Assembly: GCA_049325595.1 (NCBI GenBank)
Contig: JBMOLF010000010.1
Location: 64,001-128,000 of the forward strand
Length of the DNA stretch: 64,000 nucleotides
Reading direction: 5' to 3'
Source of the DNA: Candidatus Babelota bacterium
GTDB lineage: Bacteria; Babelota; Babeliae; Babelales; Vermiphilaceae
This document shows positions 818-61,710 of the stretch, piece after piece. The notes below the pieces were generated by a model, which saw only the letters and a list, made by a program, of their open reading frames with translations, was not told where the DNA came from and made no database searches. The translations under genes were made by a program, and so were the position numbers. Numbering within the stretch: position 1 is the first letter of the stretch; every line of letters starts with the position of its first letter.

Positions 818-852
818 AAAAAAAGTGGGTCTTTTTATGACCCACTTTTTAT
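818..852. terminator. Bidirectional intrinsic terminator
   Basis: AAAAGTGGGTC-TTTTTAT-GACCCACTTTT between convergent genes. Confidence 0.85.
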
Positions 853-853
853 T

Positions 854-2188
854 TTAAAATAATCTACGACGAGTATTATATTTTTTTTCAGAAAAACTAT
901 CTTTTTCTTTGGTTTCTTCACCAGTAAAAGCGGCATTGTATTTACGTTTTGCACTAACTTTTTTTGGTGAGGGGCTTAAAGTTTCTTTTTCAGGACTAGT
1001 AATAGATTTTTTTTCTTCCGATTCTTTTTTTTCTACTTTTTTGTAGAGCGTACATTCTGATTTTAAGTTATCAAATGTTGCAACTAAATTTTTATATGAT
1101 TCAGGACTATAATTTGGATTAATACATGCTTGATTATACTCTGTTTCATTAAACTCAGTAGCATTACCGGTATATGCCATGACCAAATTATCTTTATCTC
1201 TAAGTATTAATTTTTCATGCATAATGTTTGGCATTAGACCATGCTTTTTAGTATTACCTTCATTGTATATAAAGGTGTTAATATTTTTGTACTCTACTAG
1301 CTCATTAAGTATTTGTTTTTGTTTATCACTAGTCGGATTGTTAATAATAATTTCAAATTCAGTTCCCTGTTTTGCTTGTTCTTTAATTTGATTGATAATA
1401 TCGGGAGCTGTCAGATTCATTGTAGCAATGCGTACTTTTTTACCGGTCAAACGATCAGCAGTGATTTTGTTTAATTTATGTTTTAATGAATCAAGAAAAG
1501 TAATTTTTTGCGGTGTACATGGAATAGTTTCTTTTTGTTCATCAATTTTTTTTGTTTCAGGACTTTTATCACCTGCCAATGGTACGCAAGTTTTTTTTAA
1601 ATTTTCAAATGATTTTATGGCATCGCAAACGACTTCGCTATTTTTTATTTTTTCCACAAATTCTACATTATGATAAGCATGACCTGAAAGATTACGTGAA
1701 CCCATGACTAAAATATGTTCTTTATCAAGATTGGTTAGTTTATCAACACTTTGTGAACGAGGACGTCTTTTTGCAATTACCGTTTTAGCATGCACGGGCA
1801 TAATGTGAGCTAAATGTACTGAAACTTTAGGATTTTCTTTGGCTATTTCTTCAGCGGCTTTTTTGTTGCGATTGGTGTCATCTAAAATAATTTCTGTTGA
1901 AGCTTTTGTGCTTTTTAATGCATCTATGAACCATTTATCAGTAAGGTGAGATGCTATTATTTTTAATTCGTCGCCTTTTTCTAAAGATGAAATTGTTGAT
2001 TTTTGTGGTTTATGAGGGCCACCTTTTTTGGCTGAAAAAACAAATTTTGTCTCAGCTTTTTTCTTGATTGGTGTGGAAATTGGAGTTGCTATTGGTGTTG
2101 ATGGATTGGTATTAGTATTATTTTCCATCCCAATAACCGGAAAAGCCATAAGAGATACAAAAACTATAATTTTTAGAATATTTTTCAT
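854..2188 (-). CDS. Secreted phospholipase D superfamily (Nuc-like) protein with two HxK motifs
   Basis: Signal peptide; HAK...GSRNLS and HEKLILRD...YTGNAT motifs; basic low-complexity tails. Confidence 0.8.
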   Translation of the reverse strand: MKNILKIIVFVSLMAFPVIGMENNTNTNPSTPIATPISTPIKKKAETKFVFSAKKGGPHKPQKSTISSLEKGDELKIIASHLTDKWFIDALKSTKASTEIILDDTNRNKKAAEEIAKENPKVSVHLAHIMPVHAKTVIAKRRPRSQSVDKLTNLDKEHILVMGSRNLSGHAYHNVEFVEKIKNSEVVCDAIKSFENLKKTCVPLAGDKSPETKKIDEQKETIPCTPQKITFLDSLKHKLNKITADRLTGKKVRIATMNLTAPDIINQIKEQAKQGTEFEIIINNPTSDKQKQILNELVEYKNINTFIYNEGNTKKHGLMPNIMHEKLILRDKDNLVMAYTGNATEFNETEYNQACINPNYSPESYKNLVATFDNLKSECTLYKKVEKKESEEKKSITSPEKETLSPSPKKVSAKRKYNAAFTGEETKEKDSFSEKKYNTRRRLF

Positions 2189-2372
2189 TAGGATTTAATC
2201 CTCCACGAGATTTTAATTTAAGTATCGCATAAATTGACAATATGTCAATATATGCCCTGGCAAATTATAATTATTATTTTGAATAATTATTCTATTTGCA
2301 AACAATTGGTTTGTTGAGTTTTATTCTTTAAAAAAGTTAATCTAAAAAAAGAATTTTAGGGGGATAAGCTAC

Positions 2373-8901: not shown

Positions 8902-10221
8902 GTGAAGAAATTATTTTGCTTGTTTTTTATATCGATGTCGATTGGTGCAATGGAAGAAAAAGATAAGCCAATTGTTTTGCGCAGTTTGTCCGAACTTCTT
9001 TCACAAAAAAATATAAAAAAAGACTTCAGCATTAATTTAGTTTCGGAAGGTTTAACATCATTAGAAGGTATTGCTAATGCACGATTTATTAATAAATCAA
9101 AAAAATTTTGGAAAGAGGAAGTTCATTTATTGTTCATATCACACAATTTTATTAGTCATCTTCCTGATGAAATTGGGGAGTTTGTCGCATTAACAAATCT
9201 TTGGGCTACGCATAATTGTATAAATAACATGAGCCCTCAAATAAGTAGGTTAACCAATTTAGAACACATAAATCTTAACTATAATCGACTCGAGGAGTTA
9301 CCCATATCAGCTGGATTTGGATTCCTAAAAGAGTTAGGATTACAAAATAATTTATTAAAAAAGTTACCAGATTTATCATATTGTAGTCGCCTAGAAGTTC
9401 TTCATTTAAACCATAATAACTTATGTAATTTAACTGATGAAAAAGGCAATATTATTTTACCAGTTAGTCTTATTAGTTTGAGTGTAAGCAACAATAAGAT
9501 AACTAGTTTACCAAAAGATATAACGCAATTATCGAGGTTAATGTTTATAGATATTTCCTATAATCCACTTAATGAACTTTCTATTGATGGTGAAAGTTTT
9601 ACTAGATTGTCTAATTTAAATTTTAGCAATTGTTGCATAAAGAAGCTATCTAAGAGTTTTGGTAATATACAATATGATGGTGATAATTTTTTGCCTTTTA
9701 TTATAAACTTATCGGCAAATCAGCTGTCGGCAATGCCAGCTAATTTTGATAAAATATCTGGAAAGTTTCTTGTTAGTTTAGAAAAAAATTGTTTTACAAG
9801 AATAGGAAAGAGTTTATGCAAAAAGTTAAAATACGTAACACATTTGAATTTGGCTCTTAATCCCATTTATGAAATAAGCTTAGCAATTGAATTACTTCAA
9901 CGATTGATTTATTTAGACTTAAGTAATTGTCAGATTAAGAAGCTGCCACGCGAATTAAATTTATGTCAGTTGGATACTTTTAAGCTAAATAATAATCAGC
10001 TCATGGAATTGCCAGATGCTATTACACAATTAACAAATTTAAATTCACTTCAAATATTAGATAATCATCAACAATTACTAACATATATTTTTGATGATAA
10101 AAATAATAAAGCCATATTTAATTTTATCCAACGTTTACGTAAACAAAAAAATGTTCAATATGGCAATCCATTACGCCAATTACCTACTGATATGAAACGA
10201 GAAATTTATAAACATCTTTAG
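8902..10221 (+). CDS. Secreted leucine-rich repeat protein with C-terminal F-box-like motif
   Basis: Signal peptide, repeated LxxLxLxxNxLxxLP; ends LRQLPTDMKREIYKHL. Confidence 0.88.
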   Translation: MKKLFCLFFISMSIGAMEEKDKPIVLRSLSELLSQKNIKKDFSINLVSEGLTSLEGIANARFINKSKKFWKEEVHLLFISHNFISHLPDEIGEFVALTNLWATHNCINNMSPQISRLTNLEHINLNYNRLEELPISAGFGFLKELGLQNNLLKKLPDLSYCSRLEVLHLNHNNLCNLTDEKGNIILPVSLISLSVSNNKITSLPKDITQLSRLMFIDISYNPLNELSIDGESFTRLSNLNFSNCCIKKLSKSFGNIQYDGDNFLPFIINLSANQLSAMPANFDKISGKFLVSLEKNCFTRIGKSLCKKLKYVTHLNLALNPIYEISLAIELLQRLIYLDLSNCQIKKLPRELNLCQLDTFKLNNNQLMELPDAITQLTNLNSLQILDNHQQLLTYIFDDKNNKAIFNFIQRLRKQKNVQYGNPLRQLPTDMKREIYKHL

Positions 10222-40584: not shown

Positions 40585-41136
40585 TTATCGTACTTCTGCA
40601 GTAACATCAAGAAGTGATTCAGATAAATCATTGCCTTTAAGATCTAAATTAATACCAAGGCCTATTTTCTTCTGATTAACTAAATCAATATTCTCTGACC
40701 AGTACGTTATGATGCCTGGGCCTGTACGTATTGAATTGAACATAACCCTAATACCATCTAAATCTGCAGGATTAATCCTTGGTCTTATAGTAATAAATAG
40801 AGCGCCTCTAACATTATTTCTTTCATCAGATACTTTAATTGTAGCATCTCTAATTATCGCATCTCCTGAACGTACTGGGCGCAAGGTTATTGGCACATTT
40901 TTTACTGTTTTTCCAGGTTTTAATAAGATTAATCTTATTTCTTCTTTAGAATAAACATCGCCAGGTAAATCACCGACAGCTTCAGACAAGAAAAGATCCT
41001 GATGAGTGTGATTAGTCACTTGAGCATAGTAGGCAAAAACTTTATCAAGATTGTTTTGGTGTGGTTCTGCAGGCTGCATTGCATTTACAATTCCTAAAAC
41101 AGTGAATGTGAATATCATTTTCTTCATTAAATTCAT
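40585..41136 (-). CDS. Secreted cargo protein of the element
   Basis: AAGGG RBS, MKK signal peptide ending VNA-MQ; beta-rich. Confidence 0.75.
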   Translation of the reverse strand: MNLMKKMIFTFTVLGIVNAMQPAEPHQNNLDKVFAYYAQVTNHTHQDLFLSEAVGDLPGDVYSKEEIRLILLKPGKTVKNVPITLRPVRSGDAIIRDATIKVSDERNNVRGALFITIRPRINPADLDGIRVMFNSIRTGPGIITYWSENIDLVNQKKIGLGINLDLKGNDLSESLLDVTAEVR

Positions 41137-59304: not shown

Positions 59305-59446
59305 TTATTCAAAAACGGTTATTTTTTTGATAAACTGCGAAAATTCGGCCTTTGCTTGATCCAAATAGAAACTTTTATTGACTTTGTTTTGTATTGAGCT
59401 ATTCTGATAGTAGATTTAAAAACGAAATTTAATGGAGGAAATTCGT

Positions 59447-60193
59447 ATGAAATCTATAAAAACAATATCTTTATCATTGTTGTCATTGGTTGTGGTTGGT
59501 TCACAGCTTAATGCAATGAATATTCCAACCAAAGTTGGACCACATGCAACATTTATTGCTCGCATTACACCTAAAAGACAACCGGTTAATTTTTTTGCAC
59601 CGGTGGTAAATGTTGAACCTGCTATTAATGTTGAAGATCCATATGCGATCGCAACACAGCAAGAATTATTAGATCAATCGGCAGGATTACCTGCGCAAGA
59701 AGTTGTAGCCTCAGTATCATTTGCACAACGTGCACAACAATTTGCAAAAAATGCTTTTAATGCTGCATCTGAAAAAGCACAAACTTTTAAAACAGCAGTA
59801 GCTGAAAAAGCAAAAAATGCTTATAACAGTGAAATGGTTCAAAAAGGTTTTGCAAAATTAGCAAACGTACATGAATTTGCAGTAACACAAGGTAAAGTTG
59901 TTGCAGCTAAGGTATCTGAAAAAGCAACCCAAGCTATGGAATTTGTAAAAGAAAATCCAAAATTAGTTGCTGGTGTAGCAGCTGGTTTAATTGCTACTTA
60001 TGGTGTATACAAAGTTGTTACTGATTTGCTTAAGCAAAGAGACAGCGATGTTGTTGTAGATGAAAAAAAAGAACAACATTTTAGTGAATTAACTCCCGAA
60101 GAAGCTCAGAAGCTTATAGGTATGGGTAATGGCATGGAAGAATCTATCATAGATCCAGAACATGCAGCACAAATGGAAGCAAATAGACAATAA
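59447..60193 (+). CDS. Secreted/membrane protein with Ala/Lys-rich helices and C-proximal TM
   Basis: GGAGG RBS, signal peptide, KENPKLVAGVAAGLIATYGVYK. Confidence 0.8.
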   Translation: MKSIKTISLSLLSLVVVGSQLNAMNIPTKVGPHATFIARITPKRQPVNFFAPVVNVEPAINVEDPYAIATQQELLDQSAGLPAQEVVASVSFAQRAQQFAKNAFNAASEKAQTFKTAVAEKAKNAYNSEMVQKGFAKLANVHEFAVTQGKVVAAKVSEKATQAMEFVKENPKLVAGVAAGLIATYGVYKVVTDLLKQRDSDVVVDEKKEQHFSELTPEEAQKLIGMGNGMEESIIDPEHAAQMEANRQ

Positions 60194-61248: not shown

Positions 61249-61710
61249 ATGAAATACTTACTTTCTTTATTTATGTTGTTATCTATTGTTTCAGTAAACG
61301 CAATGGAAAATAATTTATCACGTTCTGAGTCAGACAGTTTTGTATCAGCTGAATCTTCATGTGAAGAAACAAAATCATTTGTAACAACTGCAATGGCTTC
61401 AGCTACCGAAAAGGTTGGAGAAGTTGTTGAGGCAGCTAAACAAAATGCAGAAGAAGCAGTAACAAAAGTTGAAGGTAAGTGTGCTAAATTTGGTAAATCA
61501 GTAAAAGCTAAATTTGCATCATTGCGTGGAAAAACTCCAACTTTTGCATCAATCAAATCTGGTATTAAAGCTGGTGCAAAAAATATAGCTGCTAAAATTA
61601 AAAATAATCCAAAAAAATCAGCAGCAATCGTTGCAGCAACTGTAGTGACTGTTGCCGCTATAGTTGTTTGTGTAAAAAAATATAAAGAAAAAAAAGCTAA
61701 AGTTGCTTAA
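61249..61710 (+). CDS. Secreted/membrane protein with C-terminal TM and Lys tail
   Basis: Signal peptide NA-ME, KNNPKKSAAIVAATVVTVAAIVVCVKKYKEKK. Confidence 0.8.
   Translation: MKYLLSLFMLLSIVSVNAMENNLSRSESDSFVSAESSCEETKSFVTTAMASATEKVGEVVEAAKQNAEEAVTKVEGKCAKFGKSVKAKFASLRGKTPTFASIKSGIKAGAKNIAAKIKNNPKKSAAIVAATVVTVAAIVVCVKKYKEKKAKVA

Follow-up and report, generated by a model that had tools for sequence, protein, structure and literature searches.

Why would a bacterial gene for a hydrolase with an export leader carry, outside its folded domains, the kind of short motifs that belong to eukaryotic cell-cycle control and nuclear import? The question is raised by a gene on the minus strand (854..2188; 444 aa, ATG start at 2188, stop codon at 854-856) of a 64,000 nt stretch of DNA from Candidatus Babelota bacterium (assembly GCA_049325595.1, contig JBMOLF010000010.1, positions 64,001 to 128,000), which was analysed at its full length and is referred to as the window. 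An initial annotation had proposed that the product, here called the PLD protein, is a secreted phospholipase D (PLD)/Nuc-like enzyme with sites for cyclin-dependent kinases (CDKs), a segment resembling a nuclear localisation signal (NLS) and a terminal cyclin-docking-like motif, and had read it as an enzyme directed to the host nucleus and coupled to, or interfering with, the host cell cycle. The source genome (1.29 Mb in 24 contigs, 95% complete, about 33% GC) is from the Dependentiae, which live as obligate parasites in amoebae. The explanation that we favour, at a probability of about 0.5, is that of an HKD nuclease-type effector which would be exported by Sec and a type II secretion system (T2SS) and be aimed at the host nucleus.

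Domain architecture and catalytic motifs

The PLD protein starts with a leader resembling a Sec-type signal peptide (residues 1–20, 2129..2188, minus strand as for all features of the gene), as read from the sequence and modelled by AlphaFold2 (AF2) with a helix at residues 2–14. The leader, MKNILKIIVFVSLMAFPVIG, ends in VIG before Met-Glu and combines two lysines (K2 and K6), a 14-residue uncharged hydrophobic core (I7–G20) and a small residue at the putative −1 position, with V18 and G20 placed at −3 and −1. A disordered N-terminal segment (residues 21–46, 2051..2128; predicted local distance difference test score, pLDDT, <50 at residues 16–44) leads to HKD domain 1 (residues 47–203, 1580..2050), an interdomain linker of 26 residues (204–229, 1502..1579; pLDDT 86–94) and HKD domain 2 (residues 230–382, 1043..1501), and the protein finishes with a disordered basic tail of 62 residues (383–444, 857..1042; pLDDT <50 at 389–444).

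The protein scored 50.7 bits with PF13091 (PLDc_2; cut-off 27), in two stretches of which the best covers residues 250–374 in domain 2, and in the genome search this profile matched both halves (33.9 and 26.7 bits, 27.1 with neighbours). The AF2 model, built on a 20-sequence alignment (mean pLDDT 80.4, predicted TM score 0.74), contains alpha/beta domains at residues 47–203 and 230–382, with pLDDT >90 in domain 1 outside a single loop. Foldseek returned the bacterial phospholipase D 7e0m as best match (E 1.3e-19, TM 0.60/0.68), followed by the 5′ exonucleases PLD3 and PLD4, vaccinia F13 and PssA, with PLD2 also in the list, while the family profile searched against PDB sequences matched NucT (3.8e-11), Nuc (6.7e-9) and Zucchini/mitoPLD (~1e-6); each half of the protein is nearest in profile to these nucleases. 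The NucT and Nuc equivalogs (NF010492 and NF010491) scored below their NCBIfam cut-offs (47.5 versus 297 and 27.6 versus 225 bits), and by score and architecture the PLD protein is related to these equivalogs but not a member. The enzyme call of the initial annotation, a PLD/Nuc-like HKD enzyme with a signal-peptide-like leader, thus stands, and an exported HKD phosphodiesterase is highly probable.

Conservation was followed in a 46-member family set drawn from 50 sequences by removing those >80% identical; left out of it were the short matches P0018 and P0019, the truncated or single-domain sequences L023 and L034, and L004, which represents the L006 protein again. The catalytic motifs are H133-x-K135 (1784-1792) and G163-S-R-N166 (1691-1702) in domain 1, and H324-x-K326 (1211-1219), R330 and T340-G-N342 (1163-1171) in domain 2. 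H133, K135, S164, N166, H324, K326, T/S340 and N342 are kept in 45–46 of the 46 members (H324, K326 and N342 in all 46), and H133, K135, S164 and N166 are invariant in 20/20 aligned homologs. Domain 1 departs from the canonical HxK(x)4D(x)6GSxN, as K140, in a variable column, replaces the Asp and the spacing to GSxN is 27 instead of 6; the Asp position of domain 2 is D331 in the PLD protein and E or K in close homologs. The first HxK had indeed been described as lacking its Asp and having a basic insertion, which corresponds to K140 and the 19-residue basic loop that it opens, KRRPRSQSVDKLTNLDKEH (residues 140–158, 1715-1771; pLDDT <50 at 150–155). With both catalytic sets intact and conserved, the protein joins two Nuc-like halves covalently in tandem and is likely to be active, and from the model we infer that the two H-x-K...S-x-N sets form a single active site.

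The loop at residues 140–158 contains KRRPRSQSVD, and KRRxRSxSVD is kept in five of seven close homologs; it resembles a basophilic-kinase site, the consensus of which is R-x-R-x-x-S. The equivalent loop of P0005 has an insertion of about 30 residues with additional TPQPKK and SPQK sites.

Short motifs in the flexible parts of the protein

Each of the motifs named in the initial annotation (TPIK, TPQK, SPEK, SPKK, PKKVSAKRK and the terminal RRRLF) is present. The script-checked positions of the four [ST]-P-x-[KR] sites are residue 39 for TPIK (39–42, 2063-2074) in the N-terminal segment, 225 for TPQK (225–228, 1505-1516) in the linker, and 398 for SPEK (398–401, 986-997) and 407 for SPKK in the tail. 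The linker also has SPETKK (209–214, 1547-1564), which is not a full S-P-x-K, so that the SPEK of the annotation is the one at 398–401. The tail further holds SPSPKKVSAKRK (405–416, 941-976), with PKKVSAKRK at residues 408–416, and RRRLF (440–444, 857-871) at the extreme C-terminus, where R441-R442-L443-F444 matches the common RxL consensus [RK]xLx{0,1}[FL]. Eight of the nine [ST]P pairs (residues 31, 35, 39, 209, 225, 361, 398, 405 and 407, the first three being TP) lie outside the folded cores, and one, at 361, is inside domain 2, in agreement with the claim that such pairs are concentrated in the disordered ends and the linker. Three of the four consensus CDK sites are in segments with pLDDT <50, and T225 is in the linker at pLDDT 94.

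In a crude, uncurated longest-ORF call of the genome (1294 open reading frames, ORFs), [ST]P.[KR] occurs at 0.049 per 100 aa, which gives 0.22 expected in 444 aa; the four found have a Poisson P(≥4) of ~8e-5, with ~0.1 such protein expected per proteome. The PLD protein ranks first, the runners-up having two sites. We rejected S/T-P-x-K as a general feature of the secretome (e.g. a glycosylation sequon), as no other ORF has more than two. Similarly, RRRLF as a genome-wide C-terminal sorting signal was discarded: 12 of the 1294 ORFs end in LF, and a basic RxLF-type end is found on no other of them.

Apart from the catalytic residues, R330 and T225-P226, no column is invariant in the 20-sequence alignment. 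At the column ahead of domain 2, 41/46 family members have [ST]P (37 T, 4 S), with K or R at +3 in 30 of these 41, and the motif follows the pattern Phi-x-x-T-P-x-K-x-T-Phi-Phi-x-S at a constant distance from the first strand; the site between leader and domain 1 is often equally far from the first strand, e.g. SPQKAITLL and SPKKVKLYG. Frequencies were assessed by within-segment shuffles and reversed-motif controls, which ignore the relatedness of the sequences. In linkers, [ST]P.[KR] is present in 35/46 members with 57 occurrences (shuffle mean 4.9, reached in 0/1000; reversed motif 0), and between leader and domain 1 in 16/46 (shuffle mean 1.9; reversed motif 2).

The tails past residue 383 are unalignable, yet have basic clusters. 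The classical bipartite NLS consensus is KR-x10-12-K[KR]x[KR], and the strict pattern KR-x10-12-K[KR].. occurs in nine of the 46 tails, e.g. AKRKAEDVVKADRKKQK and EKKRLQSNDMSVDSKKVKL, against a shuffle mean of 0.5 (0/1000 reach it), while a loose bipartite pattern is found in 18/46 (shuffle mean 5.6). A window with five of eight residues basic is present in the last 45 aa of 17/46 members versus 46/1294 genome ORFs, and [KR]{3} in the last 60 aa of 28/46 versus 128/1294. The docking-type motif [RK]xL(x)F occurs in 14/46 tails (shuffle mean 2.0, maximum 7, 0/1000 reach it; reversed motif 1), and, within 60 aa of the C-terminus, [RK]xL.?F in 12/46 members versus 89/1294 ORFs; six members end exactly at the Phe of RxLF, and relatives such as those with RKRLIFDTSDE, RKRLLFDSPE and AKRLRFDT match the strict RxL consensus. 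Composition alone does not explain the motifs, given the shuffles and reversed controls, which leave shared ancestry in place. On a quick tree of the core domains the RxLF label is scattered, requiring nine changes, at least four of which well-supported branches make unavoidable. Its clustering does not exceed that of shuffled labels (202/500 as low), and the scatter implies retention or regain in deep lineages.

Absence of the motifs from homologs had been named beforehand as a finding that would refute the initial annotation. The motifs are conserved: TP in 20/20 aligned homologs, [ST]P in 41/46 members and, among the close homologs, SPKK..KRK in 6/7 and NTRRRLF in 5/7. Such comparisons show what appears, from sequence, to be selection throughout the family on short motifs of three kinds in its flexible regions.

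Leader type and export route

The 46 family members each have a hydrophobic leader, the core of which is followed in 30/46 by [GASC]-M-[EDQN], the leader of the PLD protein ending in G before ME. The same signature follows the core in 69 of 520 leader-bearing crude ORFs, versus 11/1112 at an internal control position. Pfam scanning of 25 proteins with this signature gave four with ankyrin repeats, five with leucine-rich repeats (LRR), one EndoU nuclease, one GH1 and 14 without a family. As nine of these 25 are ankyrin or LRR proteins, the PLD enzyme shares its leader type with an effector-like part of the secretome, in a comparison that covered signature-bearing leaders, and leader ends of the form [GASC]-Met-[Glu/Asp/Gln/Asn] may mark a host-directed secretome, with a mature N-terminus of Met and an acidic residue. 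Leaders of this form are also found in the window at 8902-10218 (+), 10232-10888 (+), 40588-41136 (−), 59432-60190 (+) and 61249-61707 (+).

Two secretins and two ATPases of T2SS-E type are encoded in the genome, in which, at 95% completeness, a VirB4-family match was not found. A positively charged C-terminal signal for a type IV secretion system is unlikely, considering the missing VirB4 match and the N-terminal leader. For Babela, T2SS is given as the sole secretion system detected, and ankyrin proteins with a signal peptide are judged to be secreted to the amoebal cytoplasm (PMC4378268). For Chromulinavorax, signal peptides are reported on 44% of the coding sequences, nucleases are proposed to be secreted, and the host nucleus degrades from ~12 hours post infection with the mitochondria intact (PMC6561590).

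Two other leader-bearing proteins have tails resembling an NLS: a 410-aa protein (G000:C15:236844-238076, +) with a tail ending TKRPAQEQPEEQPEAKKQRTE in bipartite spacing, and an ankyrin protein (L049, G000:C7:71198-72016, +) with ..LKKKRKYRS... Judged by these tails, both are candidates for further nucleus-directed effectors. A 974-aa protein with a leader (L035, G000:C23:22388-25315, −) carries a C-terminal EndoU nuclease domain (PF14436, E 3.5e-14) in a polymorphic-toxin layout.

Distribution of the family

A word-indexed search returned six homologs with 44–95% identity, and exhaustive HMMER searching of 1.84 billion representatives gave 18 matches, only three of them below 1e-30. The family profile matches 193 of 201 sampled Dependentiae genomes, mostly over one half of the profile, which represents single-domain Nuc-like genes of ~210–300 aa. 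At least 29 of these genomes carry full-length two-domain genes, as counted from 30 loci among the matches listed, with 144 further matches outside these. The core-domain tree has long branches (median 1.0 change per column), and because of these the two-domain family is taken to evolve fast; among the genomes searched it is restricted to Dependentiae. The only named relative in the species-level genome collection, with 47% identity (L004 6001-7371), is that of 'Candidatus Dependentiae bacterium Noda2021', an isolate of the same genus which infects Vermamoeba vermiformis and is cytopathic (PMC8812299).

Four genomes have adjacent, strongly diverged pairs of two-domain paralogs (L019, L025 and L028 in G137, G012 and G011, and G004:C18:46567-49430). 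A single-domain Nuc-like HKD protein of 247 aa (G000:C7:12601-13344, −; L001 1402..2145) has a hydrophobic leader and a basic tail ending KPKRNIMKVGLKQTTRARRKTQKKILT; its homologs, among them L055–L074, are found in nearly all sampled Dependentiae genomes, and many share an N-terminal FGKTHFIVG.

Proposed mechanism and alternative explanations

In the explanation that we favour, Sec would take the PLD protein across the inner membrane and secretin/T2SS-type machinery, the sole such system found, across the outer one, and the protein would arrive in the cytoplasm of the amoebal host. The host import machinery would then read the basic C-terminal tail, bipartite (KR-x10-12-KKxK) in many relatives, and carry the enzyme into the nucleus, where cleavage of nucleic acid would contribute to breakdown of the host nucleus and to a supply of nucleotides. 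As a less certain layer, the [ST]-P-x-[KR] sites ahead of each catalytic domain and by the basic cluster, together with [RK]xLF, may allow proline-directed kinases (cyclin-CDK) to gate import or activity, comparable to yeast Yen1, where phosphorylation by Cdk keeps the nuclease out of the nucleus and reduces its binding to DNA (PMC3988869). Action in or on the host is likely, and nucleic acid is on balance the better guess for the substrate than lipid, judging from the sequence profiles; a nuclear target stands at roughly even odds, and cyclin-CDK coupling is plausible with the odds well against it.

Several observations weigh against this explanation or parts of it. Secretion past the periplasm is argued by analogy with other species, and fold and motifs suit a nuclease and a lipid phosphodiesterase alike, the best Foldseek match being a phospholipase D. 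Neither NLS pattern is matched strictly by the PLD protein itself, as the distance from KRK (414–416) is 18 residues to KK (435–436) and 23 to RRR (440–442), where 10–12 would be expected, and a classical four-residue monopartite pattern is absent, leaving a 5-of-8 basic cluster only. Long helical tails that are not basic occur in at least six members (L011, L012, L014, L016, L018 and L021), and basic tails by the 5-of-8 measure are also found in 4/20 single-domain Nuc-like proteins of the phylum. In a proteome rich in Lys (K 7.6%), basic tails may serve to bind DNA. The strict RxL consensus, with [EDST] 0–3 residues after the hydrophobic position, is not matched in the PLD protein since F444 is its last residue, and the same-genus Noda2021 homolog lacks RxLF and ends in ..KKSKIK. 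Finally, the linker TP is fixed nine residues ahead of a conserved Ser and the linker is modelled with confidence, for which reason the TP may be structural, a role that in view of the model fits at least as well as that of a kinase site. Of the host-nucleus and cell-cycle reading in the initial annotation, the enzyme call and the motif conservation have held up, while its cyclin part is weakened by the Noda2021 homolog and by the possibly structural TP.

That cyclin part can be put as an explanation in its own right, in which the PLD protein is a client or competitor of cyclin-CDK: RRRLF would dock to a host cyclin at its hydrophobic patch, and the bound CDK would phosphorylate the S/T-P-x-K sites, which would gate the effector by cell-cycle phase or, as with p21, block cyclin substrates and may, we infer, interfere with the host cell cycle. 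RRRLF does fit [RK]xLx{0,1}[FL], with RxLF and RxLxF described as optimal cores in PMC12356897, and one pattern with an optional spacer covers RRRLF, RRKLF, AKRLF, RKRLLF, RKRLIF, AKRLRF, AKKLAF, AKKLKF and KKRLMF. The excess of this pattern in tails (14/46 against 2.0 in shuffles and one reversed), its scatter over the quick tree and the enrichment of full-consensus CDK sites ahead of both domains and beside the basic cluster are all in its favour, and viral RxL mimics are known from HPV-11 E1 and MuHV-1 M97 (PMC12356897). However, the same paper reports that <15% of strict-consensus RxL peptides bind any cyclin, and the strict consensus requires [EDST] within three residues after the motif whereas RRRLF ends the protein; the motif is also missing from 32/46 tails, including that of Noda2021, in basic tails with Leu and Phe it overlaps the NLS-like clusters, and the TP site may, from the model, be structural. 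We regard this explanation as doubtful. In its fullest form, a whole family of bacterial HKD nucleases of Sec-exported type would have acquired all the short motifs of a eukaryotic substrate of cyclin-CDK, namely S/T-P-x-K/R at several sites, RxLF for docking at the C-terminus and a bipartite NLS next to phosphorylation sites. The parasite would then time entry or activity of a genome-degrading nuclease by the cell-cycle kinases of its host, or jam cyclin docking in the manner of p21, which is a slightly longer shot still.

The motifs would carry no host signalling if the PLD protein were a periplasmic or extracellular scavenging nuclease of the Nuc/NucT kind, feeding a nucleotide-auxotrophic parasite, with the tail and the S/T-P-x-K arms serving in DNA binding or structure. 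Nuc and NucT are its nearest sequence relatives, a single-domain Nuc-like gene occurs in 193/201 Dependentiae genomes when any match is counted, with a leader in 20 of 20 such proteins compared, and the single-domain proteins have basic tails in 4/20 (5-of-8) or 9/20 ([KR]{3}); the linker is confidently modelled, and the SPKK motif is a binder of the DNA minor groove. Such a scavenger leaves unexplained the spacing of basic clusters by 10–12 residues in 9/46 tails, the directional excess of [ST]P.[KR] (57 versus 0 reversed) in linkers that are of mixed charge (E/K) rather than basic, the F-COOH endings in several lineages, and the keeping of a second, fast-diverging nuclease beside a near-universal single-domain one, and we consider it unlikely, to about the same degree as the cyclin-CDK client. 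A phospholipase D effector that binds acidic phospholipids by its basic tail and remodels or lyses host membranes would resemble what is reported for Rickettsia Pld, Legionella LpdA and the plasticity-zone PLDs of Chlamydia. The best structural match, 7e0m, is a bacterial phospholipase D, PssA and PLD2 are also listed, and the extensive membrane disarray in Chromulinavorax-infected cells, noted in PMC6561590, would fit. Sequence profiles favour nucleases, though, PX, PH and C2 lipid-binding domains were not found with Pfam, and lipid binding accounts for neither the bipartite spacing nor RxLF, which makes this explanation improbable. An exported nuclease-type effector aimed at the host nucleus remains the explanation that we prefer to each of these.

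Gene neighbourhood

The gene stands alone, flanked by plus-strand genes. A promoter-like site (2221..2248, −) consists of TTGACA (2248-2243), a 16-nt spacer with TG and GATACT (2226-2221), with 10/12 matches; the region has 15 such sites versus 11.2 in shuffles, and by itself the site is therefore weak evidence for a promoter of the gene's own. A Shine-Dalgarno sequence, GGAGG (2200..2204, −), was read 11 nt ahead of the ATG. Nine nt past the stop codon, the sequence reads as a terminator-like hairpin (818..845, −), in which GTGGGTC-ATAAAAA-GACCCAC (825-845) is followed by seven T residues (818-824). This hairpin was not listed by the consensus terminator scan, though plain in the sequence, and with the A-run on its far side it may terminate both converging genes.

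The gene order leuS, small ORF, PLD gene, 137-aa ORF, GT4 glycosyltransferase and uvrB is kept in the named relative AP025250, as judged from ORF sizes and order; the GT4 identity is from Pfam, and those of leuS and uvrB are readings of the translations rather than results of a family search. The two small flanking ORFs, at 366-773 (+; 135 aa, with a leader) and 2373-2786 (+; 137 aa), have no Pfam family, and ORFs of like size are found at the matching places in AP025250.

Comparison with known systems

Nuc (the pKM101/Salmonella endonuclease, PDB 1byr) and NucT (Helicobacter pylori, PDB 6ehi) are the best profile matches, share the HKD motif and are exported by a leader. They are single-domain homodimers of ~155–180 aa, whereas the PLD protein is a tandem of diverged halves with the motif-bearing linker and the basic tail, and in its domain 1 the canonical Asp expected from HxK(x)4D gives way to K140. 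The lysosomal 5′ exonucleases PLD3 and PLD4 and the bacterial 7e0m have the same single-chain two-domain fold (Foldseek E 1e-15 to 1e-19, TM 0.57–0.70), and PLD3 and PLD4 show that tandem HKD enzymes can be nucleases. Identity with these proteins is only 11–15%, PLD3/4 have no detectable sequence relation to the PLD protein, their cellular routes differ, and in a superficial comparison they lack its linker and tail motifs.

CdtB, a nuclease, is the DNase I-like subunit of a toxin and carries an NLS. Together with Cif (PMC7819608) it stands for the nucleomodulins and cyclomodulins, bacterial proteins which get into the nucleus of the host and act on its cell cycle, and which are the system that the PLD protein most resembles; the passages covered of the review on Cif describe none with both S/T-P-x-K sites and RxL. 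CdtB and Cif have other folds and other delivery, by AB toxin and type III secretion. The regulatory region of papillomavirus E1 combines a bipartite NLS, CDK sites and a cyclin-binding RxL, the same motif trio, in a disordered region beside an enzyme that works on DNA. The RxL peptide of HPV-11 E1 binds cyclins E and A (PMC12356897). E1, a helicase of viral origin, is synthesised in the cytoplasm of the host and the function of its motifs has been shown, whereas the PLD protein is a bacterial hydrolase of Sec-exported type for which the function of the motifs is proposed. Yeast Yen1, a nuclease for which phosphorylation by Cdk shuts off both nuclear import and binding to DNA (PMC3988869), provides a mechanistic model for such motifs beside NLS and catalytic domains, but is a host protein with a Rad2/XPG fold and unrelated in sequence. 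Searches of the open-access literature gave no description of the two-domain Dependentiae PLD family and, among the papers listed, no bacterial RxL mimic; the passages covered of PMC6561590 and PMC4378268 do not mention the family.

Implications

The Dependentiae are a widespread and almost uncultured phylum of protist parasites, with a large signal-peptide secretome that is essentially uncharacterised. The two-domain PLD family offers a concrete and testable candidate for the destruction of the host nucleus, being a small, easily assayed enzyme of which the cultivable Noda2021, from the same genus, carries a homolog. Should the motif reading fail, the TPxK ahead of each HKD domain would still be an undescribed conserved element of a subfamily of the PLD superfamily. 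The fullest cyclin-CDK explanation, if true, would make the family the first RxL mimic in bacteria and the first bacterial nuclease effector to be gated by the cell cycle. Should the motif reading be true, mimicry of short linear motifs from eukaryotes, for RxL documented mainly in viruses, would extend to bacteria, and cyclin docking and import signals would be old enough to be exploited in amoebae.

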